Shown here in pieces: positions 20,505-62,309 of a stretch of DNA of 64,000 nucleotides (within the stretch, counting starts at the first letter, position 1; each line of letters opens with the position of its first letter). Source of the DNA: Candidatus Undinarchaeota archaeon (GTDB lineage Archaea; Undinarchaeota; CAZWFW01); assembly GCA_964633445.1 (NCBI GenBank), contig CAZWFW010000001.1, positions 6,339 through 70,338 on the forward strand, read 5' to 3'. The position numbers and the translations under genes are program-made. The notes beneath the pieces are model-generated. The model saw only the letters and a list, made by a program, of their open reading frames with translations, was not told the origin of the DNA and searched no databases.

Positions 20505-23500
20505 TTGAGGGGATTCCAACATACAGGTATGAAAGCCATTTTCAAAGACTTTTGCCCAAACTGTAATGGGGAAATAGATGATGAGAGACTTTGGCATAAA
20601 GTTCCTTGCGAAAAGTGTTTACCCTTATCTTTGGACAAAGTTAAAAAACTAAGCGAAAATCTCAGCAATTTAGAATTTAAAGAGCTAATTTACGAGTTAC
20701 TAAATGAAAGAGGAACTCTAAAGAATTATTCAAAAATATATGAGCTGGAGAGAAGGGTTGAGGAAGTTAACAAGATTTTTGAGGCATGTATAGGCAGCGG
20801 TCTTTGGTCTGCCCAGAAAGTTTGGGTAAAGAGAATTTTAAACAAAGTAAGTTTTGCTTTGATAAGTCCTACAGGAATGGGAAAAACAACGTTTGGTATG
20901 GTAATGTCCCTTTATTTGGCAAAGCATGGTAAGAAATGTTACATAATTTTGCCAACGACGATCCTTGTTAAACAAATAAACGATAGACTTGAAGAGTTTA
21001 TGGAAAAAAGCGGGGTTAGAGTTAGAGTTTTAGCATATCATACCGAATTAAAAAAAGGCGAGAAAGAGGAGGTAAAGGAGAAGATAACTAAAGGAGAATT
21101 CGATATATTAGTAACATCAAGTCAATTCCTAGCAAGAAACTTTGAGATAATAAAAAAGCAGAGATTCTATTTCATATTTGTGGATGATGTTGACGCTTTT
21201 CTTAAAGCATCCAAAAACATTGACAGGGTTTTGTTTCTCATGGGATTTTCTGAAGATGCCATCAAAGCCGCTATGGAGATTATTAAAATTAAAAAACAGT
21301 TAGTTGTCAGGAGGGATAAAAATCTCGAAGATAAGCTAAAAACTCTTGAAAGAAGTTTGGAGGAGTTTAAGGATGTCGAAAGCATTCTTGTGGTTTCCTC
21401 AGCAACTGGTAAGGTTAAGGGCGATAAGGTAAAAGTTTTTAGAGAATTACTCAACTTTGAAGTTGGCACTGCAAGGGAAGGGGCTAGAAATATAGAGCAT
21501 ATTTGGCTTGAAGGCAAGCTAGAGGATATCTGTGAAATAATTAGGAAAATGGGTGGTGGTTGCTTAATATTTGTTCCTATAGATGCTGGTACAGAGCTTG
21601 CCAAGGAAATTGAGCAGTTTTTAATTTCGAAAGGAATTAACGCTAAAGCTGTTCATGCAAAAACTAAAAAGAGTGTTATTGATCGCTTTGCTAAAGGGGA
21701 AATTGATGCGTTGATAGGAGTAGCGAGTTATTATGGTGTTATTGTGAGAGGATTGGATATTCCCGAGAGGGTTAGGTATGCAATATTTTATGGAATTCCG
21801 AAATTCAAATTCTCCTTAGAGATAAAGGAGAGGAATCCGATTAGGGTTCTGTCCCTGCTATCTACCTTAAGGGAATTTTCAAGTAACAAAGAAAGAGTTG
21901 ATAGAATGATTATAAAATTAAGAAGGATACTGTCAAAGCTGTCACCAGAGGATTTGAGGAAAGTTGAGGAAAGCCAACAGTTAAATGATTTTTTGGTGTA
22001 TGTTAAGCAAGAATTTGAAAAAGCTGCTGAATTTTTGCAGAATATGCTCAAAAATAAGGAGGTTCTAGATAAAATAGGAAAAAGCCCGTATATTTCTCTA
22101 GTTAAAGAAAGTGAAGGATTATTCATAAAAATACCTGATGTAAGAACATACATACAGGCTACAGGTAGAACTTCAAGAATGTATGCTGGTGGTATTACCA
22201 AAGGAGCTTCCTTTGTCTTTATAGATGATGAAAAGGTGTTTAATGGTTTGAAAAGGCAGCTGATATTACTTGATGAGGAGTTCAAAAGTATTGGTGAAGT
22301 TGATCTTAAGAAGATTAAGGAGGAGATAGAAAGGGATAGGAAATTGCTTACTGAAATCAGGGAGGGTAAAGTTAAAGTTGAGGCAAAAGAACCCGTTAAA
22401 TCTTGTTTGTTTATTGTTGAATCCCCAAACAAAGCAAAAACAATTGCAAATTTCTTTGGTAGACCATCTAAGCGTAGAATTGGTGAATTGGTTGCTTATG
22501 AAACACATACTGGAGATTTCGCTTTAACAATAATTGCAACTGGTGGACATATTTTAGATTTAGCTCATGATGGTATATATGGGGTTAAGAGGGTTAATGG
22601 TAAATTTATTCCGATCTACACGACAATTAAAAAATGTAGGAAATGTAATGAGCAATTTGTTGAGGGTGATGTATGCCCGAATAAGAAATGCAATTCAAAG
22701 GACATATTTGATAGCAGGTATACAATTGAAGCATTAAGGCATCTTGCAGATGAAATAGGATATGTTATAGTCGGTACAGATGCTGATTCGGAAGGTGAGA
22801 AAATTGCTTGGGATGTAGCAACATTAATCGCACCTTTTGCAAAAGAAATAAAGAGAGCTGAGTTTCACGAGGTTACTAGGAGAGCTATTTTGAACGCTTT
22901 GGAAAATCCAAGAGAAATTGACGAATTTAGGGTTAACGCTCAAATTGTAAGGCGTATTGAGGATAGGTGGATTGGCTTCTACTTAAGCCAAGATTTATGG
23001 AGAATATTTGAAAAGGGTTGGCTTTCGGCTGGTAGGGTGCAAACGCCAGTACTTGGCTGGGTAATTGAGTTTGAGAAGCTTGCAAGAAAGAAGAAGTCAG
23101 TAGTTAGGATAGTACTTGAGAATGATGCTGTTGTGGATTTTGAGTTTAAAAACATTAGACAGGCTAAGAAATTTGCTGAAGATGTTGAGGAAGCGTATGT
23201 GGAAATACTTGAGGAGAAAGAGGAGAAAATAAAGCCGAATCCCCCATATACAACTGATACTTTACTAAGGGACGCTTCTCGCTTCTTCAGACTTGATGCT
23301 CCAAAGGTTATGCAAATTGCGCAGGATCTTTTCGAGGCTGGGTTATGCTTGACACCAGACACCTACGTAATTATGCATGATGGAAGTATTAAGAAGATAG
23401 GCGATATCTCCGAAAATGAAAATGTTTTGGGCTTGAACAATCTACATGAGATGCCTGCAAAGGTACTAAGGTTTTGGAAGATACCGTATAAAGGTGTGAT

Positions 23501-25598
23501 CAAAGAAATAGTGCTTGAGAATAATTATAGCATAAAGGCTACTCCAGATCACGGAATTTTTGTTTACAGAGATGGTAAATTTGGTTGGGTTTCAGCTAAG
23601 AATGTAAGGGTTGGAGATTATGTGGCAGTAGCTTTCAATGTCAACATTAAAAGAGAAAGCTTAGGTTTACTCGAATTATTGGCGAAGCTTGGAATATTGG
23701 ATATATGCGTCGAATTCAAGAAAGATTCAAAACTATTTGAAAAGCTTAAAAAGAGAGTTGATGGAAGTAAGGCAAGTGCAAAATATAAGTATATGGGAAG
23801 CAGGGCAATTCCTTTAAAGTATTTAGATAAATGGGGCATTGATCTAAAAGCCGTTGAAAGGGAAGCAACCACCATTTCCAAGCAGAGATCCTCAGCTGAA
23901 AAAATTCCAATTTTTAAATTAAATAGCGATTTTTGGTACTTCGTTGGACTGGTTATGGGTGGTGGAACAATCGAAGAAGAGAAAATTGTAATATCTCAAA
24001 AAGATGCTAAGGAAATCAAAAGGATACTTGAAAATGTGTTTCCATTTGCCAATGTGAGGATTGCTGGCACGCAAGTTTACCTTGCTAATTCGATTATAGC
24101 AGAGATTTTAAGAAAACTGGATGTAAGGGGCAAGTTAAATGGTTTAGTGTTTTCACTGCCAGAGGATTGCATAAATGCTATGATAGCTGGATATATTGAT
24201 GCTGATGATAGCATTTCGTTGAAGTTTGACAAGAAATGTTGTAAAAACAATCTTAGAATTGTTATAAGTAATAAAGAAAGGGAAAAAATTGAGAAAATTG
24301 GATATTACCTATGCTTGATTGGTATTTTGAACACATTGCATAAGGATGAAAAAACAGGTATTTGGAAACTAATTTTAGGCAATAAATCGCTTAAGACGTT
24401 TAAAAAGAAGATTGGTAAACATCTTAGAACTAGGAGAAAGATTTTTGAGAAAGCATACAAAGCATGCGCAAGTGAGCATCTAGAGTCAGATTTTGTTCCG
24501 TTTAGTAAATTTTTCAAGTTACTTAAATTTGGGAAAGGTGTTGAGGGTAGAATTCTCAAAGAACTTTGCACTGATGCTCGAAATTTGGATGACTGTGCAT
24601 GTATACAAAGAGAAAAGCTTAAGAAGGTAGTTAAATTGGCTGAAGACACTGATGTTAAGACATTTTTGCTTGAACTGTTAAATGCCAATGTTTCATGGGT
24701 TAGAGTGAAGGAGGTTAGGAATAGGCAATATAACGGATATGTTTACGATATAACAACTGCAACATCAAACTTCTTTGCTAATGCGATACTTAACCACAAC
24801 TGCACCTATCACCGTACAGATTCAACAAGAGTATCAAAGGAAGGTTTGAACGTTGCTAGGGAATTGGTTGAGGAAAGTTTTGGCAAGGAATATTTCAAAG
24901 CAAGAATTTGGTATATGGAAGGTGCCCATGAGTGCATAAGGCCCACAAAACCACTTACGAGAGAGTATCTCGAGGAGTTGATTAATACTGGCGCGCTAAC
25001 ATTGCCTAGACAATTAACCTTTTGGCATCTTGTAGTTTATGAGCTCATTGTGAATAGATTTATGGCAAGTCAGATGAGAGAGGCTAGAGTTGTTAAACAG
25101 AAAGTAAAAGTAAGTGTTAAAGATGTTGAAAAAGAAGTTGAAGGATACGCTAAGGTAGCTGATGAAAGTTTCCTAAAGATAACTAAGGTACCAATGATAC
25201 CCGAGTTTAGGAATGGTAGGGTAAAAGTTAAAGATGTAAAGGTAATGAGGGTACCATCATCCAAGTTGCTTACGCAAGCGGATCTCGTTGCTTTAATGAA
25301 GGAGAGGGGTATAGGTAGGCCATCAACCTATGCTACAATAATTGCTAAATTGTTCAAAAGGGGTTACCTTTACGAGCTTGGTAAGGAGAAGAGGATTAAT
25401 AAAATTGTGGCAAGGAAAATTGGCAAGGAAGTTTTTCAGTATTTGATTAGCAATTATCCTCATTTAATTAGCGAGGAGCGTACAAGGAAACTTGAGGAGG
25501 ATATGGATATGATAGAGGAGGGTAAGAAAGATTATCAGGAAGTTCTAAATGAAATTTACAAGGAAATCTTTGAGCCAGAAATACTCAAGCAATATTAA
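20505..25598 (+). CDS. rgy: reverse gyrase, interrupted in-frame by an intein
   Basis: N-terminal zinc finger CPNCNGE..CEKC. Helicase-like domain with Walker A SPTGMGKTT and a DExx-type box FIFVDDVD. C-terminal topoisomerase IA domain including the active-site motif LTREYLEELI. The predicted extein is 1212 aa, typical for reverse gyrase. The track start is a TTG at 20505; an in-frame ATG lies at 20529. Confidence 0.9.
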   Translation: MRGFQHTGMKAIFKDFCPNCNGEIDDERLWHKVPCEKCLPLSLDKVKKLSENLSNLEFKELIYELLNERGTLKNYSKIYELERRVEEVNKIFEACIGSGLWSAQKVWVKRILNKVSFALISPTGMGKTTFGMVMSLYLAKHGKKCYIILPTTILVKQINDRLEEFMEKSGVRVRVLAYHTELKKGEKEEVKEKITKGEFDILVTSSQFLARNFEIIKKQRFYFIFVDDVDAFLKASKNIDRVLFLMGFSEDAIKAAMEIIKIKKQLVVRRDKNLEDKLKTLERSLEEFKDVESILVVSSATGKVKGDKVKVFRELLNFEVGTAREGARNIEHIWLEGKLEDICEIIRKMGGGCLIFVPIDAGTELAKEIEQFLISKGINAKAVHAKTKKSVIDRFAKGEIDALIGVASYYGVIVRGLDIPERVRYAIFYGIPKFKFSLEIKERNPIRVLSLLSTLREFSSNKERVDRMIIKLRRILSKLSPEDLRKVEESQQLNDFLVYVKQEFEKAAEFLQNMLKNKEVLDKIGKSPYISLVKESEGLFIKIPDVRTYIQATGRTSRMYAGGITKGASFVFIDDEKVFNGLKRQLILLDEEFKSIGEVDLKKIKEEIERDRKLLTEIREGKVKVEAKEPVKSCLFIVESPNKAKTIANFFGRPSKRRIGELVAYETHTGDFALTIIATGGHILDLAHDGIYGVKRVNGKFIPIYTTIKKCRKCNEQFVEGDVCPNKKCNSKDIFDSRYTIEALRHLADEIGYVIVGTDADSEGEKIAWDVATLIAPFAKEIKRAEFHEVTRRAILNALENPREIDEFRVNAQIVRRIEDRWIGFYLSQDLWRIFEKGWLSAGRVQTPVLGWVIEFEKLARKKKSVVRIVLENDAVVDFEFKNIRQAKKFAEDVEEAYVEILEEKEEKIKPNPPYTTDTLLRDASRFFRLDAPKVMQIAQDLFEAGLCLTPDTYVIMHDGSIKKIGDISENENVLGLNNLHEMPAKVLRFWKIPYKGVIKEIVLENNYSIKATPDHGIFVYRDGKFGWVSAKNVRVGDYVAVAFNVNIKRESLGLLELLAKLGILDICVEFKKDSKLFEKLKKRVDGSKASAKYKYMGSRAIPLKYLDKWGIDLKAVEREATTISKQRSSAEKIPIFKLNSDFWYFVGLVMGGGTIEEEKIVISQKDAKEIKRILENVFPFANVRIAGTQVYLANSIIAEILRKLDVRGKLNGLVFSLPEDCINAMIAGYIDADDSISLKFDKKCCKNNLRIVISNKEREKIEKIGYYLCLIGILNTLHKDEKTGIWKLILGNKSLKTFKKKIGKHLRTRRKIFEKAYKACASEHLESDFVPFSKFFKLLKFGKGVEGRILKELCTDARNLDDCACIQREKLKKVVKLAEDTDVKTFLLELLNANVSWVRVKEVRNRQYNGYVYDITTATSNFFANAILNHNCTYHRTDSTRVSKEGLNVARELVEESFGKEYFKARIWYMEGAHECIRPTKPLTREYLEELINTGALTLPRQLTFWHLVVYELIVNRFMASQMREARVVKQKVKVSVKDVEKEVEGYAKVADESFLKITKVPMIPEFRNGRVKVKDVKVMRVPSSKLLTQADLVALMKERGIGRPSTYATIIAKLFKRGYLYELGKEKRINKIVARKIGKEVFQYLISNYPHLISEERTRKLEEDMDMIEEGKKDYQEVLNEIYKEIFEPEILKQY
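23346..24800 (+). mobile_element. intein (485 aa) with LAGLIDADG homing-endonuclease domain inside the reverse gyrase topoisomerase domain
   Basis: It starts with Cys (FEAGL|CLTPD). Block B TxxH (ATPDHGIF). LAGLIDADG-type motifs DFWYFVGLVMGGG and INAMIAGYIDADDS. It ends ..ILNHN followed by +1 Cys (CTYHRTD). All coordinates are in frame with the host ORF. Confidence 0.8.
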
Positions 25599-39710: not shown

Positions 39711-40190
39711 TTATTTTCTAAGCAAGAAGGTGATTATTTCTGAAAAAATTACCTTAACCCAACCAATGTAGGGTATTCTAAAAACAACTCTACCCAAAAC
39801 CATGTTTGGGTTCACTGGTGGAGATATTCCTACATCCTGATCTGCAGCTGGATTATTATCTCCTCTAGTTATAAAATATCCCTCATTGGTAATATTAATA
39901 ACTCTGTGAACAATTCTCATGCCACTTGGTGCCTTATAAACAATTATATCACCAATTTTTATGTCCTGAGGGTCTACCCCTTTAACAATTAGCACATCAC
40001 CTTTATGAATAGCGGGATACATGCTATTAGACATAACAGCTACCAAAGGCGTCTCCGTTTTTAGAGCGTAACCTAAGGCATGATTGAAAGTGAAACTAAA
40101 AACTATGGCGAAAGCTATCCAGAATATCCAACTTTTCAACTCCTCTTTATCAATTTTTAATACAATTCTCAAGTCCAACACCCCTTGCAA
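39711..40190 (-). CDS. signal peptidase I (archaeal Sec11/SPC18 type)
   Basis: N-terminal TM, then the catalytic Ser box VMSNSMYPAIHKGD and a downstream conserved GDNN motif (ITRGDNNPAADQ). Confidence 0.7.
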   Translation of the reverse strand: MQGVLDLRIVLKIDKEELKSWIFWIAFAIVFSFTFNHALGYALKTETPLVAVMSNSMYPAIHKGDVLIVKGVDPQDIKIGDIIVYKAPSGMRIVHRVINITNEGYFITRGDNNPAADQDVGISPPVNPNMVLGRVVFRIPYIGWVKVIFSEIITFLLRK

Positions 40191-43062: not shown

Positions 43063-43452
43063 TCAGCCACTTCCCTCCTCTGGTAGTTCCTCAGCTGCCA
43101 AAACTTTTCTAATAACTTCTATAACTGCAGATGGTTCAAAGGGTTTAACAACGTAATCCTCCGCTCCTAAATCTAAAGCCTTCTTTATAATTGCATCCTG
43201 ACCAACTGCAGAAACCATAATAACTTTTATTTCTGGAAACTCTCCCTTTATTTCTTTAAGTGTTTCAATACCATCTTTTCCCTCCATTATAATATCAAGC
43301 ATAACTAGTTCTGGTTTTTCAATCTTGACTTTTGCAATAGCCTCATCACCAGATCCTGCTTCAATAATATCAGAGTAACCCTCCTTCTCAAGTATTCCTC
43401 TAAGGACTCTTCTCATAAACTTGGAGTCATCAACTATTAGTACTTTGACCAT
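43063..43452 (-). CDS. cheY: chemotaxis response regulator CheY
   Basis: Stand-alone receiver domain: VLIVDDS, phospho-acceptor context LVMLDIIMEG, and the conserved Lys in VVKPF. Confidence 0.85.
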   Translation of the reverse strand: MVKVLIVDDSKFMRRVLRGILEKEGYSDIIEAGSGDEAIAKVKIEKPELVMLDIIMEGKDGIETLKEIKGEFPEIKVIMVSAVGQDAIIKKALDLGAEDYVVKPFEPSAVIEVIRKVLAAEELPEEGSG

Positions 43453-43608
43453 TTTCCTAAGAGTTTTATTGTAAATAAATTATACTTAAATTGTTCTACA
43501 CCTTCGTATGAATCTTTTTTCTTCACATAGGCTGCAACATCTATTACAATGTATGCTTTAATCTACTATATATATGCTTTTCGGTTACTCTCTCTTGTGT
43601 GTGAAGTA

Positions 43609-44079
43609 TTATTGAGGTGTTGTTAAACTACTTAGTTTTTCGAGCTCCTTAGGCGAAAGAATTTTTTTTACATCAATTATAAGAATTATTTTCTTATCTA
43701 TGGTTATGACTCCTGTCAAATACTTCGCTGAAATTAAAGATGTTAAAACTTGAGGAACTGGTTTTATTTCCTTTTTCGGAACTCTGATTATCTCGGAAAC
43801 ACCGTCTACAATTATTCCAACAAAAGATTCTTTCTCTACCTCAACAATTATAATATTACTACCCTTTTTCTTACTTTCAACGTTAAATCTCTTCTTTAAA
43901 TCTATAACAGGAATTATGTCACCACGCAAATTAATTAACCCTTCAACAAATTCTGGAACATTTGGCACCTTTGTTACCTCTTCTCTCACAATTATTTCCT
44001 TAGCTTGAAGTATATCCATAGCGTATTCTTCATCCTCCAATTTAAAGACTATAAGTTGCGCTTCCTCGCTTCCAACCAT
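43609..44079 (-). CDS. cheW: chemotaxis coupling protein CheW
   Basis: 156 aa. QLIVFKLEDEEYAMDILQAKEII and LINLRGDIIPVIDLKKRF are CheW motifs. Confidence 0.8.
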   Translation of the reverse strand: MVGSEEAQLIVFKLEDEEYAMDILQAKEIIVREEVTKVPNVPEFVEGLINLRGDIIPVIDLKKRFNVESKKKGSNIIIVEVEKESFVGIIVDGVSEIIRVPKKEIKPVPQVLTSLISAKYLTGVITIDKKIILIIDVKKILSPKELEKLSSLTTPQ

Positions 44080-44085
44080 TTTTAT

Positions 44086-45207
44086 TTATTTTTTAAATTT
44101 TCTAATCTCCTCTAATTTTTTGCTGAATTCCTTTAGAGAATTAGCAAATCCCTCAACACTTGCTGTAACTTCCTCAGCCCCAGCTGCGTTCTCTTCAGCT
44201 GCTGCAGCAATTTCTGTTATTGTTGTCGAAACTTGTTGTATATTTTTAGCTTGTTGTTGTTGGGATGCAGAAACTTGCTGCATTTGTGCAGCAATTCTCT
44301 GAATGGCTTCAGCAATAGTTCTAAATGCTAGTAAAGCATTAGCAGATGTTTTGACAGCCTTTGTAACACTACTTTTGGCTATTCCTGCAGATTCTACAGA
44401 TTTAGCGCTATAAGTTTGTATTTCTCCAAGTAAATCGGAAATTTTTGTTGCAGCAACTCTTGAATTTTCAGCCAACTTTCTAATCTCATCAGCAACTACT
44501 GCGAATCCTCTACCAGCTTCACCAGCTCTTGCAGCTTCTATAGCAGCATTTAATGCTAGTAAGTTAGTTTGTAATGATATATCTTTTATAGTTTCGACAA
44601 TTTTTCCAATTTCCTGACTTTTACCACCCAAATTTTTAATTATATCAGAAAGCTCCACAACAATTTTCTCGCTATTTTTAAGCTCCTCTATAGCTTTTTC
44701 AGCGCCTTCCTTACCCCTAGTAGCACTTTTACTTATATCAACTGCAAGTTTTTCTGCTTTCTGAATACTTGAGCTAATTTGTTGTGAAGCTGCTGAAAGC
44801 TCTATAATTGCTTTTCTAATGTCCTCAATTTGAATAGATTGATTTTGAGCATTTTTTGCCATTTGCTGAGTAACAGCATTAATTTCCTTGGAAACATCGA
44901 CAATATTTGAAAAAGACTTCATCATCTTTTCTATTTCGCTGGAAATACCTTCTTTTACTTTCACTTCAATAGAGTCTAAAACATCGTTTAAAGCTTGTGC
45001 AAAAACTTTGAAATTAGGATCGGGAATCTCATCTGGGTTTACTCTTGCCTTTATATTTCCCTCCTTGTATATTCTAAGCAAAACTTCACATATCTTACCA
45101 ATACTTTCACTAATTTCAGAGGCTACTCTTCCCACTTCCTCAGGTTTGTTAACATGTTCAAAAACTTTAGCTTTTAACTCGTTTATGTCCAAAAATTTCT
45201 CAGTCAT
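44086..45207 (-). CDS. methyl-accepting chemotaxis protein, soluble (no TM helices)
   Basis: Highly conserved signalling hairpin [34 protein letters not shown]. Methylation-helix heptads. No hydrophobic segment. Confidence 0.85.
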
Positions 45208-50881: not shown

Positions 50882-52621
50882 CTATACTCTTTCAATTTTT
50901 ATCCTCTTTATCTCGTTAAGCAATTCTTTTTCCTCGTCGCTTAACATATTTAGCAGTTTTTCCTCAATGATACTGATATCCCTGTCCTCAAGAAAAACAT
51001 AAAGCATATCTCCCTCATTTGCTTGTCTGCCAATTGTTAAACCCTCTACTGCAATCGCAACGCGCTTGCCTTTCTTTGCCTCTTTAATATTTTCACCATG
51101 CTCCTGCATGCTTTTCAGTCTTCCTACAATTCTTCCATCTTTTCTCATTAAATAACAATTTGGTTTTAGAGTTCCGCAAATCACCTCTATACCGAAAATT
51201 GCTGGCTTACTTTGCCTAAATATATAACCTGGTAGGATCTTTATCTTTGCTGGTAGTGTAGCCTTCAGTTTTTCAATCTCCTCTTTTTTAGCCTTTTCAA
51301 TCCACTTCTCGTAATCCTCCTTAAGCTTGTAAATAACATTGCTCAGGAAAATCTTTATTTTATAATCTTCAGCAAGCTTTTTAGCGTCTTCATTGACATA
51401 TACATTAAATCCAAAGATAACAGCTTTCAACGGATCCTCAGCCCTAACACTCTTAACCTCCATGATGTCAGCTCTTGAAATATTACCGACATCTGCCTTC
51501 CTTATAGGAACTACGCCCTCAAGTAGCTTTGTTAACGCTTCTAACGAGCCTAGAGTATCGGCTTTAACGATTGCCCCTATATTCTGCTTGTTAAATATTA
51601 TTTTAGCTATTTCCTTTTGAACATCTTTACATGCTTTATCAATGTCTTTTGCGACAATTAAAGGTGAACCAGCTAGTGCTTCCTCAATATTTTTTGCGAG
51701 AATCCTTATACCTGCCGCAGCGTAAGCTTCGTCAATTTTCCTAAATTTTCTCTCACTTTCTCTTAATTCGCTTAAAGGCTTAGGTTTAAGGATCGCCCTT
51801 ATTTTCGTTATTATTGGCCCTTGCTTACCAGCCAGAACGATCGTATCCCCTTGCTTAATATGCCCATCGTAGAGAATAACGTCTAGTGCGATTCCAGCAA
51901 GCGTCTTTTTAACGTCGAGCACAACACCTTTACCAGGGCCCTTGACCTCGATTTTTAGCTTATCCTCAAGATATTTTTGTGCTAAGCCAGTTAAAATCAT
52001 TAGCAACTCAGCAATACCCTCACCAGTTTTTGCTGAGATCGGCACGATGCATATCTGCTTTGTAAAATCAGTAACTCTGTCGAAGCGATCCGCATTAAAG
52101 TTATACTTTGCAAGCTCCTCAACAATCTTGTAAATTCTCTCCTCAAGCTTTGCTACAGCATCGTCTCTTTGATTTCTCAGGTTTTGTGTAAATGGTTCAT
52201 GGCTACTTTGCCAACCATCTATTAAATCAATTTTGTTTGCGGCAACAATAAAGGGAACTTTGTATTTTCTCAAAATTTCTACGCATTCAATTGTTTGGGG
52301 CTGAAAGCCTTGCACTATGTCAATTACCAAAATAGCTAAATCAGAAATTGATCCTCCTCTGGCTCTCAAATTTGTGAATGCCTCGTGTCCTGGCGTATCT
52401 ATGAAGAGCAATCCAGGTATTGTTATTTTTATTTTCAAAGTCTCTAACAATCCCTTGCAAATTTTTTTAATAGCACTTATTGGTATTTCAGTAGCTCCTA
52501 TATGCTGTGTTATACCTCCTGCCTCTTTTGCCGCAATTGCAGTTCCTCTAATTTTATCGAGTAGTGCTGTTTTTCCGTGATCTACATGCCCAAGCACTGT
52601 AATTATTGGCTGACGAATCAT
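50882..52621 (-). CDS. infB: translation initiation factor aIF5B (IF2 homolog)
   Basis: G1 VLGHVDHGKTALLD, DTPGHEAF, and NKID. 579 aa, colinear with aIF5B. No intein insertion. Confidence 0.9.
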   Translation of the reverse strand: MIRQPIITVLGHVDHGKTALLDKIRGTAIAAKEAGGITQHIGATEIPISAIKKICKGLLETLKIKITIPGLLFIDTPGHEAFTNLRARGGSISDLAILVIDIVQGFQPQTIECVEILRKYKVPFIVAANKIDLIDGWQSSHEPFTQNLRNQRDDAVAKLEERIYKIVEELAKYNFNADRFDRVTDFTKQICIVPISAKTGEGIAELLMILTGLAQKYLEDKLKIEVKGPGKGVVLDVKKTLAGIALDVILYDGHIKQGDTIVLAGKQGPIITKIRAILKPKPLSELRESERKFRKIDEAYAAAGIRILAKNIEEALAGSPLIVAKDIDKACKDVQKEIAKIIFNKQNIGAIVKADTLGSLEALTKLLEGVVPIRKADVGNISRADIMEVKSVRAEDPLKAVIFGFNVYVNEDAKKLAEDYKIKIFLSNVIYKLKEDYEKWIEKAKKEEIEKLKATLPAKIKILPGYIFRQSKPAIFGIEVICGTLKPNCYLMRKDGRIVGRLKSMQEHGENIKEAKKGKRVAIAVEGLTIGRQANEGDMLYVFLEDRDISIIEEKLLNMLSDEEKELLNEIKRIKIERV

Positions 52622-52690
52622 ATTAGATTAAACTTAGGGGTTTATTTATAAAAAACTTCAAACTAAATTTATCAGCAGGAGAATATTAGC

Positions 52691-55600
52691 CTAAAATAAT
52701 CTAAGTGCCCTGCACCTTGAGAAATAGGCGAGTGCCAGAATAACAGCTAAAATAATTGCATAAGTGTTTATACCACTTGCAATCTTAATCGTTACGGGAA
52801 TCCAAGGAGTCACTTGAACGTCCTCCACTATATCAACACTTATTGATTTTTCAGGATAATCACATATATCGCCATAAGGGCCTTTTTCACAAACTTTAAT
52901 TCCAATAGTGTCAGTACCAGCCTGTGCACCCAATAGAGTAATAGTAACTTTAATTTCGCTAAAACCTTTTACATTCTGTATGCAGAACTCAGAAATACCA
53001 CACTTAAAGATGCCTGATCCTGTATCAGGATCAGCTCCTGAAACATCCTCTATTTTAACATTACCTTTGTTTATGTCTATGGTTATCGTAATATTTCTTT
53101 CCTCCTTTAATCTTTTACCTATTTTTAGCAGAATTTCTCTATCTTGACCCAAAGGGATTTCTACTTTAGTCTGGGAAATAGCAGCAGATATGCAAGCGCC
53201 ACATCCACTATTTATTCCGCAATCTACATCCTCCTCATTGCAAATGTTATCATCCTTAATATTATTCTCGCAATGATTATCGTACCAAGTTCCATTTAAG
53301 CAAACCCCTCCTTCATATATATGGCACCAGTTATCTGTTGGCTTGTCGCAGCATTTGTTAAAGTTAATATCCGTGTTATATGGAGAGTCATCATCCCAGT
53401 GATGTCCAAAGGCTTCGCAGATTGCCGAGTCCAGCTCTTTCTCATATTCGCTTCCCCAATATATCTTTCCAGCTGACGAATTATATCTCGATCCAGTTAG
53501 GTTAACGCATGCATATTTGGTGCCATTATATACAGTAACAATTTCATTCAAATCTTTTTCTTTAACAAAATTACTCTCATCAGAGCTCACGTCAAAGTAA
53601 CACTTGTATACATAAGATTGAGTACCTTCGTCAGAATCTGAACCATAACCAGATGTTATCGTATCGTTACCTGGGCAGAGGTAGCAGTTGTAGCAAAGAG
53701 ATGGCGTATCTGTTGCATTTACTCTCCAAATCTCGTTTAGTTTACATGATTTGTAAACAGTTATGGAATGCTTACTTTCCTCCTCACCAAAAGTACCATC
53801 CGTGCTTAATATGCTTAACCTTGTTTTAAGTTCAGATTGATTAACAATACCATCACCATTTTCGTCTGCTGTAAATGGTAGGTCTTCAACTTCACCAACA
53901 CCACAGTGAGCTACCTCATAAAACCCTCCTCTACTTCTTTTTATGCATTTATCGAAATTATAAAGGCATTCTGCTAAAGTTAGTGGTTCCAGATCTTGAA
54001 AGCTTGCATATGCCCACGCTTGACTGCAGTTATAAGAAATTTGCTCGGTTATGTTAAGTGATACTGTGAGGTCATCCAACCATGATAAAGCAAGATCCAA
54101 CTTTATGTCTGCAATCTGGTTAATCTTAATAGTTAGATCTCCAACAAGATCGTTTTCCCAGCCTATTGTGAGATTTAATGTGATGTTGGCCAAATCCTTA
54201 TTTACAGGAGAAACTTCTATAGAGTTAACACTCTCGGATGCTACACTTGGCACATATCCCTCGCAAAGGGAATATTTTTTCTCAATTTCATCTTTTAACT
54301 TGCTTTTAATTTGGGAATCAGTTACAACGCCTTTATTTTTAATATCATTGTAAACAGTGTTGTAGTTTGTGTAGTCCTCAGCATAATTCTCAAATTCAGT
54401 GGAATTCATACCGAATATTTCAGTAGTATTTATATCTGAAAGATTCATCATTATATTAAAGGTTTCAGTTGGTAGTGGTGAAGGAAGACTTGCAGAAACG
54501 CTTTCTATACCTCCATCTACGCCGCATTTACTCTTTATTAATGCTTCAAAAGATTTCCAATTTGAATTTATATCATTAGCTAGCTCAGTAGCATTGCAAT
54601 AACCCCAGTCAGTTGCTATGAACCCACAAATTTTTGTTACTTCGTAATACGTGTCTGGTGTAACAGCTATGTTAGCTGGTGGTTTTTCAACATAGAATAT
54701 TGGGTTATACGAGGGGCAAACACTTGGACTTATATAACCAAGGGAGGTTAGTTTGTTAATCAGTTTTTGCTTTAGAACAGTTTTATCTATATAACCAGAA
54801 GAATTTAGTTCATCAAAAGTCTCATTATAATTTACAGGATTTTCGGCATAAGTCTTGAACTCGGAGGCACTTAAGCCAAATAGTTTTGTTACGTTAACAT
54901 CATCTAAAGTTAATAGAACATTAAAAGATGTATATCCTGCAGGAACATTTGCTTGGACATCCTTAATATTTTCCTCCTTAACACCACACTCGGTAGCAAT
55001 GGCACTTTTAAAACTCTGCCAATTACCATTTATATCATTAGCTAAACTATAAGCATCACAATAACCACTCCAACTGCTACTTGTTGCTATAGAAACGCAT
55101 GAGGAGTATTGAGTTACAGTTAATTCACATTCTGTAATATTTGGAGGCACTTCATGCTGTCCTAGGACAAATGATTCGGAAAAATAAATATCTCCAACTC
55201 TTTTTGGACCCTCTGTCTCGGTAGGAACATAAATACCTTTGGCTGTAAGATTTACCCAACCAGGAATTCCCCCACTTCTACCAATCTCAACAGTCTTGTT
55301 AATAGCTTCTATGAGCGCTCTTCTCCATGCCCAACTTTTATACCCTTTACCTATCAATTTTAGCGTATAATTTTTCCTAAAAACTTGCTGTTCAGGAATT
55401 GTAAAATTTTCCAGAATTCCGGTATTACCTGCAGTAAGATTTAAGCTTTGATGAGCAACAAATATACCATATTCAGTGCTTAAAACATTACTGCCATCTA
55501 AAAGGCTTGCATTAACTCCTAACATTGGAATTCTGTCTACACAAGCTTCTATAAATGCTGAGAAAGTGACAGTGACATTCTCACCGGAACGCCATATATT

Positions 55601-57562
55601 GTTTGCATCTCTTATCCCAGGGTTGCTTAATCCAAGAGATAAACTATCAATTGATGTTAAATTTAAACCAATACGTGACAATTCTTTTTCTAAAACATTT
55701 TCTCGAAGCTCTCCAATAACTCTACACATTGGACAAATCCATCCTCCCGAAATTGTAAGTGTGGAACTGGACCCAGAAGTAAGTGAGCAACCCCCACTGA
55801 AAGGATTGCAACCTTCAGAAGGGATGGTATAGGATACTATGCATGGCTGCGTTACGGTTGTGCTACCTGCCTCATTTTTATATTCCCATTTACATTGGGG
55901 AGGATCACACCATGTTCCATATTGTACACATCTCCTACAACTTTCAGCAGCCTTTATTTCAGTTTTCTCAACTGGATGGGGGCAAAAACTTAAGGAAGCT
56001 GCACCAAAACTACAACTTGCATTTTTATATAAGCTTAATGGCTGGTATAGCGTTGTTGTTTCTCCTCCACTACAACATGGCCAAGGATTACTTGGAGAAT
56101 AAAGACATCTCGCACATTCCGAGGTACAACATCCTGCGTATGCAAATTTCGTATTAAGAAACAAAGTGAATAAGAGTAGAACGATTGGAAGGTATTCCTT
56201 CCTTCTAAAGAACTTGAAGAATAACATCGTTGCTAATATAATGGTTAGAGCTACTAAAATATATACTTTGTTCGACTTCTTAACTTCAACTTTTTCCCCA
56301 AAACCTGGAGTTTCCTCACCAGTTTCTTTTGCAGGCATGAAGCTTATGCAATCCATACAATTAAGTTTTTTCTCAAAATCATCGCAAATTCCATCATCAA
56401 AGCATTGATTGGCATTCAAATATTTGACTCTCCCATCCTCAGCAAGTATTATCTCAGGTTCTAAATCATAATACTCTATTTGCTCTTCATCAAAAACACG
56501 ACCATCTTTTCCTAATTTTACAACAACCTTATATTTCAACAAATCTTCTTTGGCTCTAAATTTGAACGTAAAACTTTCTGGTTTAAAAGTAAGGTCTATT
56601 GTCTTATTCTCACTAAACACCTCCTCATTATTCCTATAGATTTCAAGCAAAAGATATGCATTGCTGACAATTGATTTATCTGCAGGCCCTACAACCGTAA
56701 CGTTAATTTCAACTTCATCACCTTTTTTATAGACGTCCTTCTTATTTTCAATACTTAGTATTGTGCCACCTTCACCCATGATAACAGCTCTGCATTCGCT
56801 CGTAGCTAATAAATTGTTCTGCAAATCGTAAATCTCTATAACAACTCTATAAGTTCCTGGGATTGTTATGCTAATAGGAATCTCAATAACTTTTCTAGCA
56901 TTACCTTCTAGCTCTCCAATATCAACCTCCTTCTCAAAGATAACATTGCCAGAGTAAGTACCAATCGCTTTTACTAATCCCTTTACTTTTATGCTAAAAG
57001 GATTTTTATTTATTAAGGGAGCGATTAGACGAATTTCGGCTGATGGTGGTATTTCTCTCCCCCAATCTGAATAGGAATACCATACAATTCTCCTGACAAT
57101 TGTGTCTGAGCGTTGAATTTGAATAACTTTTAAATAAACAGTTTTCTCAAATGAAACCTTTGGTAAGGTTGCAATGTCGCTTAAGTTCACATCACTTGAT
57201 AACCATGTAAGAGGCTTTCCAAACTCGTATACTTTGCAATATACCTTATAATTATCTCTTGGAAGTTTCTCTGGTAGTGTTAAGCTAAAACTTAAATCTT
57301 TTACCTCTCTTGAATCTAGAAGCACTGTCTCAGTATTTCTTGCGAAGATGCTGGAATCAGATCCTGCAAGAATGACCTCAACGTTAAATTTCTTTACGAC
57401 GTATTCCGTATTAGCAACTCTTACAGAAACATCTAAAGCATTACCTACATTCTCAGCTTCACATTGAAGCAAAGTAACACAATTTGCCACATTTAATATA
57501 ACAAGCTGTGCTAGGCAAATAATAAAAAAAACCTTAAAATTTTTCAATCCTCGCCTAACCAT
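52691..57562 (-). CDS. giant cysteine-rich surface protein (signal peptide, Ig/CARDB-like beta domains, internal TM/second signal-like segment, tandem about 115-aa repeats, C-terminal TM anchor)
   Basis: 1623 aa with an N-terminal signal. There are more than 60 Cys residues concentrated in two regions. An internal hydrophobic pair lies around aa 432-480. Duplicated modules [29 protein letters not shown] / [29 protein letters not shown]. The C-terminal [17 protein letters not shown] is a TM anchor. Confidence 0.65.
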
Positions 57563-57999
57563 TCCTCATCACATCTCCTATAATCATATATTTCATTATC
57601 ATTAAAATAAATTCTTATTTCTCTTTCAGCTGTTTTTCTTGAATCAGAAGCATGAACAATATTATTTGGCAAGCCTATTGCAAAATCTCCTCTTATACTA
57701 CCTGGTAAAGCTTCCCTAGGATTTGTTGCGCCTACAAGATTTCTAACAACTTTAATAGCCTCCTTACCCTCAACAACCATAACAACGCTGGGGGCTGAGG
57801 TTATATATTTTATTAAACCTTCATAAAATGGTTTGCCTTTATGCATCTCATATTGCTTCTCCGCAAGCCTTTTATTAATCCAAATCATCTTCATTGCAAC
57901 GATTTTAAGCCCTTTTTTCTCAATTCTTTTAACAACCTCTCCAACTAGCCCCCTAACAACACCATCTGGTTTTACTATAACAAGTGTTTTTTCGATCAT
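57544..57999 (-). CDS. ndk: nucleoside-diphosphate kinase
   Basis: [21 protein letters not shown], the active-site His in NIVHASDS, and YFNDNE. I place the start at the internal MIEKTL, which gives 151 aa. Confidence 0.85.
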
Positions 58000-58049
58000 G
58001 CTATATTTTATGATAGTAAAGCAGAAATTTATATCATAAAGCATGATAC

Positions 58050-58800: not shown

Positions 58801-61278
58801 ATGCTAAAGATGATAAGTGCAAACGCCATTCCCAAAATATTTAAGGGAAAACTTGGTGTTGTTATAGTTGTGGTATTTTTAGTAATTTTAGTTGGTCTCT
58901 TAATTCACCATACAACTGTCTCGAATGTCTCTAACGCATCCTCAACTGAGGAGGTAGGTCAGGAAACGCCGTCTCCTGAATCATCTCCCGAAATAACTAA
59001 AGAAATTGAGGAGGAAATTAAGAAAGAGGAAGAACTTGAGGAGTCTGACAAAAGCCCTCCAGAGATTTTTGTGAAGTTATCTAAGGAAAAGGTTAAAAAA
59101 GGAGATACTGTTGACATTGAGGTTACAGCAAGAGACGAGTCTGGAGTTGCTAGTGTTGTTGCGGAGGTTGAAACTGAGGGAACCTTCAATTTACAACTTG
59201 CTGAGGGTAGTGAATATAGTGGTATATGGAGGGCCTCATTTGTCATTGTTTCCGATTTGGAGAAGGATAAGAAGTATAAGATAGTTATTAAAGCATTTGA
59301 TAGAAGAGGAAATTTGGCCGTAAAAACTTTGGAATACTACGATCCAGTTACCAAAATTGTGATACCTAGAGCTGATGATGATATGAACTATCAAACCCAG
59401 GACTCAGATTGTTCATCGAATCCTGAATATAAATATTATACTTGCAGCAATTGCGATGAAAATGATATTCCTGGTTGGTATATGCTTAGCTATGATGATT
59501 CCTCATGGCCAACGGGCTACGCACCTTTTGGTCAACCTGCTTGGGGAGAATGCACTCAAGCCTTAACTTCAGCTCCAGATGATTTGTTTGTAAGGAAGTG
59601 GTTCTTTATTCCTGGCACTCCTCAAGGCGCTACATTAAGATTGAGTTATGATGATGGGATTAAATGCTACATTAATGAGAATGTTGTAATTAATGTTATA
59701 AGCGAAGCTCATGGCCCTTCATATTGGAATAGGCAAGTTACTATATCTAGCTCTGTTTTGAAGTCTGGCCAAAATCTTTTAACTTGTTGGGTTGCTAATG
59801 GTGGTGAGAATAGTGGCAGTGGAGGAGGCTGGCTTGATTTAGAGCTAGAAGTTACTTATGAACCTATATATATAACGAATGTTACAGTTGAAACAGATAA
59901 ACAAGCCTACGATCCTGGTGATGACGTCAACATAACTGTTACAGTCTTCTCGGACTCCACAAGACTAAGCAACGTTCCCGTTACCATAAAGATCTATGAT
60001 CCAGACGAAAAAATTGTTTTAGATAAACAAGCGGTAACTGATAACAACGGTGAAGTGAAACTCACATATACTTTACCTGTCGATGCGAAGTGGGGTGTTT
60101 ACGTAATTAATGCTACTGCTGAAATGGAAAATACATTCAGCACAATTAAAAAATTTGGTGTTGGTCCAGCTGTTGATATATTTGACATAAAAACAACTCC
60201 TCAAAAGGTTAAGGCACCTGCTAATGTTACAATAACTGCAGACATTTCAAATATAGGTAGCATGAACCTTAGCAATTTGGTTGTTGAAACAAAGATTATT
60301 GGAGGGTCATGGTTTGATGCTTCGTGGAATTACAGAGTACCTATAACAATAACCGAGCAAAGTGGGAATGTTTTGACAGACTATCAAGTTCTGGTTACTT
60401 TAGATACCGCTTCTTTGATTTCAGCAGGGAAAATGCGAAGTGATTGCGGAGATATAAGGTTTGCTGACTCAAATGGAAATACATTAAGCTATTGGATAGA
60501 GTCTGGTTGTGGTTCAGCTAATACAAAAATCTGGATAAAAGTTCCAGAGATTATGGCTAATAAGAATACAACAATTTATGTTTACTATGGGAATCCTAAC
60601 GCAGAAAGTATGAGTAATGGAAATGATGTATTTTTAGACTATGAAGAAACACTTTACTGTCAAGGTTCAACTGCTTCAGGGGGATGTTATGTAACGTTCT
60701 CTCTTTCTAATGAAAAATTTGCTCCTTATCAATCTTCAGGCTATGGTGTATTAGATTGGAAAATGGCTGGAGACTTTAATTCCGGAGGAAGTTATTCATC
60801 CTCGGGCTGTAGCTGTGTCTCAGAAAGCTATGAAAGAGCAAGATTATGTGCAGATTCAACTACTTGTTCAGATACTCATCCAAATTGTCTTGGATGCTAC
60901 TCAACTGGATATCAAGATTGTACGCTGCGCTCTCCTTCTGGCTTCCCAAAGGATGTTAGCAGCTATATAATAGATAAAACTTCTGTGTCTTTTGCAACAG
61001 ACACTACGAATGAAGTAAACTATAATCCTGGCTGTGGTTATTATTACAAATTTGAGTTTCATTTGAAAGCTAAAACTCGCAAGTATGTCTCTCCAGAACC
61101 AACAACAAGTGTAGGTGATGAGGAAACTTTAAGCTCTGTAATACTGGCATCACTTTCAAAAACAATCTCAAGCTTAGCAGTAGGCCAAACAATAAATGAT
61201 TTCCAATTAGGTAAAGTAGATGTTGACTGCTGGGATGTAGGGAATTATAACATAGTCATAACCGTTAAGCAAGGATGA
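58801..61278 (+). CDS. secreted/membrane-anchored protein containing a DUF2341 domain and Cys-rich C-terminal region
   Basis: N-terminal TM LGVVIVVVFLVILVGLLI and an acidic/Ser-rich linker. SWNYRVPITITEQSGNVLTDYQVLVTLDTASL...CGDIRFADSNGNTLSYWIESG...KIWIKVPEIMANKNTTIYVYYGNPNA matches the DUF2341 consensus. Confidence 0.6.
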   Translation: MLKMISANAIPKIFKGKLGVVIVVVFLVILVGLLIHHTTVSNVSNASSTEEVGQETPSPESSPEITKEIEEEIKKEEELEESDKSPPEIFVKLSKEKVKKGDTVDIEVTARDESGVASVVAEVETEGTFNLQLAEGSEYSGIWRASFVIVSDLEKDKKYKIVIKAFDRRGNLAVKTLEYYDPVTKIVIPRADDDMNYQTQDSDCSSNPEYKYYTCSNCDENDIPGWYMLSYDDSSWPTGYAPFGQPAWGECTQALTSAPDDLFVRKWFFIPGTPQGATLRLSYDDGIKCYINENVVINVISEAHGPSYWNRQVTISSSVLKSGQNLLTCWVANGGENSGSGGGWLDLELEVTYEPIYITNVTVETDKQAYDPGDDVNITVTVFSDSTRLSNVPVTIKIYDPDEKIVLDKQAVTDNNGEVKLTYTLPVDAKWGVYVINATAEMENTFSTIKKFGVGPAVDIFDIKTTPQKVKAPANVTITADISNIGSMNLSNLVVETKIIGGSWFDASWNYRVPITITEQSGNVLTDYQVLVTLDTASLISAGKMRSDCGDIRFADSNGNTLSYWIESGCGSANTKIWIKVPEIMANKNTTIYVYYGNPNAESMSNGNDVFLDYEETLYCQGSTASGGCYVTFSLSNEKFAPYQSSGYGVLDWKMAGDFNSGGSYSSSGCSCVSESYERARLCADSTTCSDTHPNCLGCYSTGYQDCTLRSPSGFPKDVSSYIIDKTSVSFATDTTNEVNYNPGCGYYYKFEFHLKAKTRKYVSPEPTTSVGDEETLSSVILASLSKTISSLAVGQTINDFQLGKVDVDCWDVGNYNIVITVKQG

Positions 61279-62309
61279 AGAATTTAAAGCTAATTATTAT
61301 AGCTTTACTATTTTTACTCTTTGCTGAAAATTCTTTTTCACAAACAATTTATGGAAAGGCTAAGTCAGAATTATGCATAATTTATTCTTGTATTCCTGAG
61401 AACTTCACTTATGCTCAAGCTCTGCAGGAAATGAGAATAATCTATTCATGTATACCTAAAAATTTCACTTATACAGAAACTTCTGGAAAATTTAGGGTAA
61501 TCTATTCATGTATACCTAAAAATTTCACTTATACACAAATTTCTGGAAAAATGAGGGTAATTTATTCTTGCATACCACCTAATTTTATTTATCAAAGTTA
61601 CGAATTCGAAGGTTTTGAAATAAATGAAACCTGCCCACCCCAGCCAGCTGATCTGAAAATTCTAGACTATGATATTATTCCATTGTCAAGCCCCTTGGAG
61701 TCATTACAGAAATTCAGGCTCGAGGTTCTTGTCACATCAAACACAACGTGCTATGCAACTCTACTATTTAAGGATTACTCCACGTCTTTTTATATTCGTG
61801 CAAATGAAACAAAGGAGCTAGCAATTTATTTCGATGAAAATGTAAGTACAGAAAGCTTAACAAGGAAAATAGAAATAAGCTATCCACTTGAAGTTAATGA
61901 AAGCGATAATAAAAAAACAATAGTTCTTTACGTTCAGAACCCACCTAACGTTTTGAAAGCAAACGAAACATATGATTTTTCAGCCTCTGAGGGTAAGATA
62001 ATCGCAAGTGTTGATCTGAAATCTAGTGATGTTTGGACATGGATTGAGATTGAAGAAAACGATGATGCGAGGGGAATGAGTATAAAAAAGATTGTTAGGC
62101 AGGATGGAAAAGTTATTGAGAGATGGTTTAGAATAGGAAACAAGGTATACATTTTTGACGATCCATCAACCTACATCGTATACTATGTGAAACCATATCT
62201 GCCTGTAGTTGCCTATGAAACTAGCTTATTCATAGCAGTTCTAATTTCACTGGCAATAGGGATAATTGTTAGTTTGAGAACGGTTAGACGAAGTAAGATA
62301 GGAAGTTAA
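61275..62309 (+). CDS. secreted protein with four tandem 20-aa repeats and C-terminal TM anchor
   Basis: Signal peptide MKNLKLIIIALLFLLFAENSFS. Repeats (I/V)IYSCIP.NFTY....(M/F)R encoded by exact 60-bp tandem units. C-terminal hydrophobic helix LFIAVLISLAIGIIVSL. 4-nt overlap with the upstream gene. Confidence 0.55.
   Translation: MKNLKLIIIALLFLLFAENSFSQTIYGKAKSELCIIYSCIPENFTYAQALQEMRIIYSCIPKNFTYTETSGKFRVIYSCIPKNFTYTQISGKMRVIYSCIPPNFIYQSYEFEGFEINETCPPQPADLKILDYDIIPLSSPLESLQKFRLEVLVTSNTTCYATLLFKDYSTSFYIRANETKELAIYFDENVSTESLTRKIEISYPLEVNESDNKKTIVLYVQNPPNVLKANETYDFSASEGKIIASVDLKSSDVWTWIEIEENDDARGMSIKKIVRQDGKVIERWFRIGNKVYIFDDPSTYIVYYVKPYLPVVAYETSLFIAVLISLAIGIIVSLRTVRRSKIGS
61376..61600 (+). repeat. 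tandem direct repeat, period 60 bp, about 3.7 copies (coding)
   Basis: The units starting at 61381, 61441, 61501 and 61561 are in exact 60-nt register. Copies 2 and 3 are more than 90% identical (ATCTATTCATGTATACCTAAAAATTTCACTTATACA...). Confidence 0.8.

Follow-up and report, generated by a model that had tools for sequence, protein, structure and literature searches.

In the Sulfolobales, the co-transcribed genes slaA and slaB encode a large glycosylated outer protein and a beta-sandwich protein of approximately 450–480 amino acids (aa) with a C-terminal transmembrane (TM) anchor, and the pair shows the strain-level variability typical of exposed surface proteins. The vertebrate astrotactins (astrotactin-1/2) consist of a signal peptide, an N-terminal ectodomain, a first TM segment (TM1), a second (TM2) that is cleaved by the signal peptidase of the endoplasmic reticulum (ER), and a large C-terminal ectodomain (bioRxiv 10.1101/493858). 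Bunyavirus-type glycoprotein precursors have the order Gn, TM segment, internal signal peptide, Gc, and TM segment, and are cut by host signal peptidase (PMC7926653). Here, we examined a stretch of 64,000 nucleotides (nt) from a Candidatus Undinarchaeota archaeon (contig CAZWFW010000001.1, positions 6,339 to 70,338), the whole of which is called the window, and in particular a giant open reading frame (ORF) of 1623 aa that lies between ndk and infB at 52691..57562 on the reverse strand, as do all of its parts described below. We propose that the giant ORF arose when two genes, A (residues 1 to ~457) and B (residues ~453–1623), were fused in frame, and that it is made as a single precursor that would be cut back to its ancestral parts by signal peptidase; we give this reading a probability of roughly 0.62.

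When the full-length 1623-aa protein was used as the query against a word-indexed database of 5.8 billion proteins, only the self-match was returned, and splitting the query exposed the homologs; a later profile search with an alignment (A2) gave fewer matches. Residues 1–480 matched four standalone proteins of 451–478 aa (E = 1e−41 to 1e−60, 33–36% BLASTP identity), each with a signal peptide, the same ectodomain, an invariant C-F-D-D-x-x-C...E...C-x-D-C knot, and one C-terminal TM helix. These proteins end in basic tails (KKRR, RKK, KKMWLK, and RRWSQ), and their stops aligned exactly opposite the sequence FFKFFRRKE of the giant ORF. The earlier note on this DNA had described the first ~450 residues as a complete anchored protein, and these standalone A homologs with a terminal TM helix bear out that description. 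On the four contigs first found, the gene lying 3′ of A overlapped it by 4 nt and encoded a product of 808, 1063, at least 814, or at least 714 aa. These B proteins were homologous to the C part of the giant ORF over nearly the full length, with 20–36% identity, and had the motifs ACxNRIPM, GYKxWAWR, GDLYFS, CLYNxDxC, and VYRxC in common with it. Split B proteins start with Met and a classical signal peptide, as in the four examples MRRKIFITGISIFLILFLIGVPSVFA/DQSC, MKNKILIGVGVFLLLMSALNVEA/GCKK, MKAKLMGKISTGLLAILIFLIFQAYVEA/GCYP, and MSFEVRKTTVYSVLVITALLVGMVSMVSA/DPP, where the slash marks the cleavage site. Altogether, split loci were found in eight cases (L005, L006, L007-9, L010, L011, L016, L017, and L018), four of them through matches to the N part, one through a metagenome scan, and three through matches to the B family. 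A and B are adjacent at every one of these loci, the stop codon of A and the start codon of B overlap in an ATGA motif in 8/8, and B is a separate gene with its own signal peptide. The note's reading of the remainder of the ORF as an independent secreted Cys-rich protein is thus upheld, as is its suggestion that two genes have been fused, for which it had proposed this comparison with homologs.

The split B signal peptides aligned with residues 453–476 of the giant ORF, after which the sequence continues with GCCT. Because the split loci place the start and the signal peptide of B at this position of the alignment, the internal signal-peptide-like segment can be identified as the ancestral signal peptide of B and TM1 as the ancestral membrane anchor of A. 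TM1 (56207..56266), which the note had located at about residues 432–452, spans residues 433–452 and aligned with the terminal TM helix of P0004–P0007 and of the A protein of L011; it would act as a stop-transfer anchor. The second, signal-peptide-like segment was also as claimed, with an internal Met (Met446; ATG at 56227..56225) and residues 446–476 preceding GCC. The fusion seam itself is a predicted basic cytoplasmic loop, R453-R-K-E-Y457 (56192..56206), which corresponds to the ancestral basic tail of A together with the n-region of the B signal peptide. It is followed by the internal signal peptide (56135..56191), which aligned with the standalone B signal peptides and comprises an h-region at residues 458–469 and the c-region NTKFAYA at residues 470–476. 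A type I signal peptidase site (AYA/G) is predicted between A476 and G477, that is, between nt 56135 and 56134. At the DNA level, the seam reads ATG AGA AGG AAA in L005 versus TTT AGA AGG AAG in the giant ORF, so that the codon TTT at 56209..56207 (F452) occupies the position of the B start codon. The ATGA motif is gone and one continuous frame runs through the seam, which makes the giant ORF a fused variant of the A–B operon. Joining the two frames at the overlap requires a net change of −2 or +1 nt, and a small change of this kind would have removed both the stop codon of A and the ATG of B in the lineage of the giant ORF. From these alignments, it is close to certain that in the giant ORF two neighboring genes, which are separate in most of its relatives, have been joined in frame.

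The remaining parts of the giant ORF belong to the A and B modules. The A module begins with an N-terminal signal peptide (57473..57562, residues 1 to ~30; hydropathy peak at 5–16) that aligned with those of the standalone A proteins, and its ectodomain (56267..57472) consists of three beta-sandwich domains, a small Cys knot, and a linker. The B part (1,147 residues) is rich in Cys and N-glycosylation sequons and ends in a C-terminal anchor: the predicted mature ectodomain (52784..56134, residues 477–1593) is Cys-rich and carries 29 sequons, and the TM anchor with the basic tail SRCRALRLF (52694..52783, residues ~1594–1614) has homologs in the B proteins of L006 and L011 and in P0013, P0032, and P0033. 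Past residue 477, the giant ORF contains 52 of its 61 Cys residues and 29 of its 32 NxS/T sequons. A Kyte-Doolittle plot with a 19-residue window gave hydropathy peaks at window starts 5–16, 430–436, 458–460, and 1590–1602. Within B, a module of ~130 residues is duplicated in tandem (residues ~822–948 and ~979–1107; 54233..55150; 42% identity, E = 2e−30), which was detected by direct comparison of the segments and was not reported when the giant protein was compared with itself by BLASTP. The other B homologs in the alignment had a single copy of this module, so that the extra copy in the giant ORF is a lineage-specific insertion. A weak second Cys knot of the A type (A hidden Markov model [HMM] positions 394–428) was also seen at residues ~1434–1470 (53153..53263), near the C-terminal module of B and just ahead of the last beta-sandwich and the anchor.

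Membership in the A family was examined with a profile built from the standalone 451–478-aa proteins, and hmmsearch aligned HMM positions 1–460 with residues 1–453 of the giant ORF (E = 1.9e−190), including the terminal TM helix and the CFDDxxC...CxDC knot, which in the giant ORF is C387-F-D-D-x-x-C393...C402-x-D-C405. In alignments, the B cores W.CP...ACxNRIPM...GYKxWAWR...GDxYFS and CLYNxDxC...VYRxC were present in order in the giant ORF, and the B homology spanned residues ~477–1623. The AlphaFold model of the A ectodomain (pLDDT 71) showed beta-sandwiches at residues ~29–126, 136–261, and 267–364, and Foldseek matched it to MG/FN3/Ig-like arrays. The A module also gave sub-threshold matches to DUF7490 and CARDB and showed weak similarity to MG2 regions of neighboring proteins. 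A is modeled as an array of sandwiches like the archaeal surface domains of the Pfam DUF7490, CARDB, and MG2 type; however, all of these scores of the window protein are under the Pfam gathering thresholds, and such folds are generic and silent on function. Nothing above threshold was found when the giant ORF and eight family members were scanned against Pfam and NCBIfam, a sequence-profile search of the PDB with A and B found no relatives, and fold searches with A and B returned generic beta-sandwich domains only. Class II fusogens, or fusexins (HAP2-like), were also considered, and the three-domain class II fold was not seen across the ectodomain. A viral origin was rejected, as no relatives of A or B were present in IMG/VR contigs. 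The A/B family is unannotated and archaeal.

Fused forms are not restricted to the giant ORF. In an exhaustive HMMER search of residues 424–1623 against 1.84 billion cluster representatives, 32 matches were obtained, 30 of them at E ≤ 1e−10. Most of the B-family matches were standalone B proteins, in which the match started near their own signal peptide, and four were further fused proteins (P0015, P0022, P0024, and P0026) with a complete N-terminal A module (A-profile E = 1e−77 to 1e−107). The four additional junctions consist of a TM helix, a basic loop of 4–8 residues, an h-region of 14–15 residues, and a polar c-region, with the cleavage-type sites VYA/G, ANA/D, VQA/D, and TNA/D, and the mature N-terminus of fused B (GC... 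or DP...PPP) is the same as that of the split B proteins. The five fused proteins had just 28–39% mutual identity, and they never clustered (0% of 200 bootstraps) in neighbor-joining trees of A, of B, or of the concatenation. P0015 paired with the split locus L016 (98%), P0022 with the split locus L017 (100%), and the giant ORF with the split loci L005, L010, and L011 (86%). Because the fused forms are not monophyletic and pair with different split loci, the tree topologies imply that the fusion arose at least three independent times; and because every split locus carries the same ATGA overlap, the split operon is most simply taken as the ancestral state. P0015 (L012, 4758..7814) keeps the ancestral ATGA in frame (TTG ATG ACA) directly after a run of seven A residues (AAG AAA AAA AGG), and removal of one A would give back the split pair. 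The site may be one where slippage readily brings about fusion and fission; alternatively, it may be a sequencing error. In three of the five fused forms, the giant ORF among them, the start codon of B itself has been lost, so in these B would be made solely via the precursor.

The internal segment of the giant ORF has the parts of a Sec-type signal peptide. K450, R453, R454, and K455 precede the h-region, with a net charge of +3 over residues 450–457; the h-region has 12 residues in the giant ORF and 14–15 in the fused homologs, compared with 18–22 for TM1 in the same proteins; and the c-region NTKFAYA/G has A at −3 and −1. The segment is not N-terminally located, as it begins at residue ~453 of a continuous ORF in which the ATG of B has become TTT. 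As the ORF reads, this signal peptide can only be used internally, unless translation starts at Met446 and makes it N-terminal. The twin-arginine (Tat) consensus is S/T-R-R-x-F-L-K ahead of the h-region, and a Tat signal based on the RR of RRKE was rejected: the giant ORF reads F-R-R-K-E-Y-L, and the orthologous B signal peptides (MKNK, MKAK, MKK, and MSFEVRK) have no RR. The −3/−1 rule is obeyed by nearly all of the fused proteins (n = 5) and listed split members, although the B protein of L011 (TLA/T) has L at −3. In all five fused junctions, an h-region of 12–15 residues and a polar c-region are followed by (A/V/T)-x-A right before the mature N-terminus of B.

Judged from these features, cleavage after A476 by the type I signal peptidase of the cell is a plausible and fairly probable processing step. 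The short h-region and the residues N470, T471, and K472 are poorly suited to a permanent TM helix, and small −3/−1 residues before a conserved mature N-terminus are retained in 5/5 fused proteins. The site also matches those of secreted proteins from the same genome, which follow the same grammar (LNYAHA/Q, LPKAYS/T, ENSFS/Q, and KTSCA/K). Furthermore, a candidate processing enzyme is encoded in the window by a type I signal peptidase gene of the S24/S26 group (39711..40190, reverse strand; PF00717, 29.4 bits against a cut-off of 23.3; PF10502, 26.8 bits against a cut-off of 22.9). On the proposed mechanism, the N-terminal signal peptide of A would start translocation, TM1 would stop it in an N-out/C-in orientation, and the RRKEY loop would stay in the cytoplasm. 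The former B signal peptide would then re-insert N-in/C-out and restart the translocation of B, which would finally be anchored by its C-terminal helix with SRCRALRLF inside. The fusion would therefore be topologically neutral, since both ectodomains would lie outside, as when they are made separately, and this unchanged topology may explain why the fusion has been tolerated and is recurrent. A cut after AYA476 would regenerate mature B (GCCTSE...), and A would remain held in the membrane by a hairpin of TM1, RRKEY, and the signal peptide. A polyprotein precursor of this kind would enforce the production of A and B at a ratio of 1:1. The signal-anchor hairpin that the earlier note had offered as a third explanation is no rival to the fusion, since the fused precursor necessarily has this topology for as long as it is uncleaved.

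A fused protein that stays uncleaved is the strongest of the other explanations. The former signal peptide would then be a permanent second TM helix, and the product would be a three-TM protein of ~180 kDa with both ectodomains outside by way of a TM1–RRKEY–TM2 hairpin. AlphaFold drew two antiparallel helices at residues 432–451 and 455–475 with low confidence, a three-TM topology fits the positive-inside rule, and generic signal-peptide grammar is unspecific. However, a 19-residue span built on the 12-residue h-region would bury N470, T471, and K472, and the small residues at −3 and −1 have been kept in all five fused proteins despite their low mutual identity. We therefore regard this explanation as unlikely, with perhaps one chance in several of being right.

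The production of B, additionally or mainly, from Met446 by an internal leaderless-type promoter is less probable again. This start would give a secreted or anchored C-terminal isoform with residues 446–476 as its signal peptide, and Met446 is the sole in-frame start codon near the junction, within TM1. An 11-nt A/T run resembling a TATA box (tatatatttta; 56255..56265) lies 28–38 nt upstream of it, and many real starts in the window have TATA-like boxes 25–38 nt upstream. Of the 212 internal in-frame ATGs in the window, only 10 (4.7%) had an A/T run of at least 10 nt in the −45 to −18 region, versus 19 of 38 real starts. The run at Met446, however, is encoded by codons of the TM helix (KVYILV) and is hence expected there, and no Shine-Dalgarno-like sequence precedes Met446, unlike the GGAGGTG-like motif found ahead of the ATG of B in several split relatives. 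The junction Met is kept in just two of the five fused homologs and is absent from P0024 and P0022. Even if Met446 were used, ribosomes translating A would still read into B, as there is no stop between them. The internal alternative start suggested in the note is thus neither needed nor conserved, with just a weak TATA-like AT run in its favor, and it appears quite improbable.

The 1623-aa frame is open in three non-identical copies from independent metagenome assemblies (an NCBI/ENA contig of 70 kb, a JGI contig of 61 kb, and ENA contigs of 5–16 kb), which differ at five residues, none of them near residues 425–480; because it is intact in all three, the open frame is not a one-off assembly error. 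An artifact in which assembly or a sequencing indel at the junction merged two real genes, to which one might be led by the split state of the majority, by the sufficiency of a change of 1–2 nt, and by the A7 run beside the junction of one fused homolog (P0015), is very improbable in view of these copies and of a seam (TTC AAG TTC TTT AGA AGG AAG) that contains no homopolymer of more than 3 nt and from which the ATGA motif has gone.

Several points weigh against the fusion of A and B into a cleaved precursor, or against parts of it. The trees are simple neighbor-joining trees of sequences with 30–40% identity, and the position of the P0015 junction after the A7 run makes a homopolymer error possible in that case. 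The retention of AxA may reflect recent fusion rather than selection, as the fused proteins are all singleton lineages. Neither A nor B has relatives in Pfam, NCBIfam, or the PDB. Ordinary TM helices within polytopic proteins of the window are also picked up by a crude n/h/c grammar for signal peptides; our home-made scan with this grammar was not discriminating and was not used as evidence. The significance of the segment comes instead from its alignment with genuine N-terminal signal peptides of standalone homologs, not from its likeness to a signal peptide alone.

The slot between ndk and infB is variable among strains. The 5′ boundary of the variable cassette is the ndk gene (57544..58044, reverse strand), directly upstream of the giant ORF. 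The two overlap by 19 nt, at the 3′ end of ndk and the start of the ORF, which suggests that they are co-transcribed. The longest ndk ORF has an N-terminal extension of 15 residues before the conserved segment, and translation probably begins at the second Met. In closely related strains, represented by the loci L014 (ENA ERZ27248328, k141_429387) and L015 (JGI 3300022470, Ga0190367_1005778), the slot holds an entirely different cassette. Its ndk-side flank, which consists of the ndk 3′ end and the first 19 nt of the ORF (57544..57684), is 100% identical, and both ORFs begin with MVRRGL. On the infB side, the identity is 92.8% over a common 3′ block (52546..53236, reverse strand) that comprises the final ~545 nt of the ORF, or ~180 codons of B, together with the spacer and the infB start. 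Between the flanks, these strains encode a split pair with a 4-nt overlap, namely, a 541-aa anchored protein and a 1101-aa Cys-rich protein (P0008). P0008 has only its last ~220 residues in common with the giant ORF (residues 1403–1623, 80% identity), and the 541-aa protein is at best a distant relative of A (hhalign probability 27%). Compared in this way, the slot looks like a site of recombination-driven replacement of surface-protein alleles. A synteny search through infB in the genome contig collection found only distant Woesearchaeota loci (44–45% identity) with no giant ORF upstream, indicating that the cassette is not a conserved part of the ndk–infB neighborhood.

The window has a GC content of about 35% and encodes reverse gyrase with an intein, aIF5B, aIF2-gamma, S6e, and ndk; the presence of reverse gyrase indicates that the organism is a thermophile or hyperthermophile. 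The reverse gyrase gene lies at 20505..25598 on the forward strand (TIGR01054, 1387 bits), and matches to the N-terminal splicing region of inteins fall around residues 948–1438 of its product. The gene at 12064..16701 (reverse strand) encodes a 1545-aa alpha-2-macroglobulin homolog with MG2, A2M, TED, and bMG10 domains, and is preceded by a gene (16708..18504) whose 598-aa product has a signal peptide and is anchored at its C-terminus. The alpha-2-macroglobulin homolog has about five TM-like hydrophobic segments mid-protein (residues ~676–843), between the MG2 and A2M domains; A2M proteins do not usually have such a cluster, which might mark a further fusion seam. On the strand opposite to the giant ORF, a pair of surface-protein genes with a 4-nt overlap encodes proteins of 825 aa (58801..61278, forward) and 344 aa (61275..62309, forward). 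The former carries MG2 and DUF2341 domains in addition to a signal anchor, and weak similarity links its MG2 region to residues 267–322 of the giant ORF; in the latter, a signal peptide is combined with a C-terminal anchor. Chemotaxis-like genes are located at 43063..45207 (reverse strand): the product of 44086..45207 has a Pfam MCP signaling domain, and those of 43609..44079 and 43063..43452 are CheW-like and CheY-like, respectively, by reading of their N-terminal sequences only.

The ATGA coupling, the combination of an anchor with a large, glycosylatable, Cys-rich partner, and the extracellular topology suggest, with low confidence, that A and B form a 1:1 complex at the cell surface, where it would serve in structure or adhesion. 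Tight coupling, an anchored beta-sandwich protein paired with a Cys-rich glycoprotein, and the very different alleles of close strains make the A/B family a candidate for a major component of the surface or envelope in uncultured thermophilic archaea. In its widest form, the proposal is of a cell-surface polyprotein of uncultured archaea: one chain would comprise an anchored stalk protein and a large glycoprotein partner, to be separated by signal peptidase. The arrangement would have arisen recurrently from an ATGA-coupled operon, would be carried in a recombining and strain-variable ndk–infB cassette, and would possibly serve as a so far unrecognized two-component envelope or S-layer-like system; we consider that this combination has slightly less than an even chance of being correct.

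Gene fusion and internal signal peptides are each already known. We know of no documented natural archaeal polyprotein that is processed by signal peptidase, nor of the recurrent origin of one from an ATGA-coupled operon. If the internal signal peptide is cleaved, the giant ORF would be, to our knowledge, a first natural archaeal case of polyprotein processing by signal peptidase, a mechanism so far tied to eukaryotic ER proteins and enveloped viruses. The family offers a natural experiment, in which one protein pair is encoded either by an ATGA-coupled operon or by a single ORF, which arose at least three independent times and has a seam made of a stop-transfer anchor and a signal peptide, and it would show with what ease an operon of membrane proteins can be fused without a change in topology. 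On the practical side, annotation pipelines would mis-describe the fused ORFs as giant three-TM proteins, and the two halves need to be treated separately when the A/B family is searched for.

The likeness of the A/B pair to slaA/slaB of the Sulfolobales is confined to the logic of the gene pair and to strain variability; the gene order is reversed in A/B, A and B have no sequence similarity to SlaA or SlaB, and neither of these was among the top structural matches. An S-layer role for A/B is speculative. The astrotactins have no homology to the giant ORF, are eukaryotic and ER-processed, and have no known origin from two adjacent genes, and their cleavage has been demonstrated, whereas that of the giant ORF is deduced. 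In linear order and predicted topology, however, the two are alike: the second hydrophobic segment serves as an internal signal peptide ending in a signal-peptidase site, and two ectodomain fragments result, as proposed for the giant ORF. The precursors of bunyaviruses and other enveloped viruses likewise have no homology to A/B, but they too encode two type-I membrane glycoproteins in one ORF, in which the signal peptide of the second comes after the anchor of the first, and both products are separately anchored at their C-termini, just as B in the giant ORF keeps its C-terminal TM helix. If the proposal is correct, the archaeal polyprotein would be a prokaryotic counterpart of the viral glycoprotein precursors and of astrotactin.

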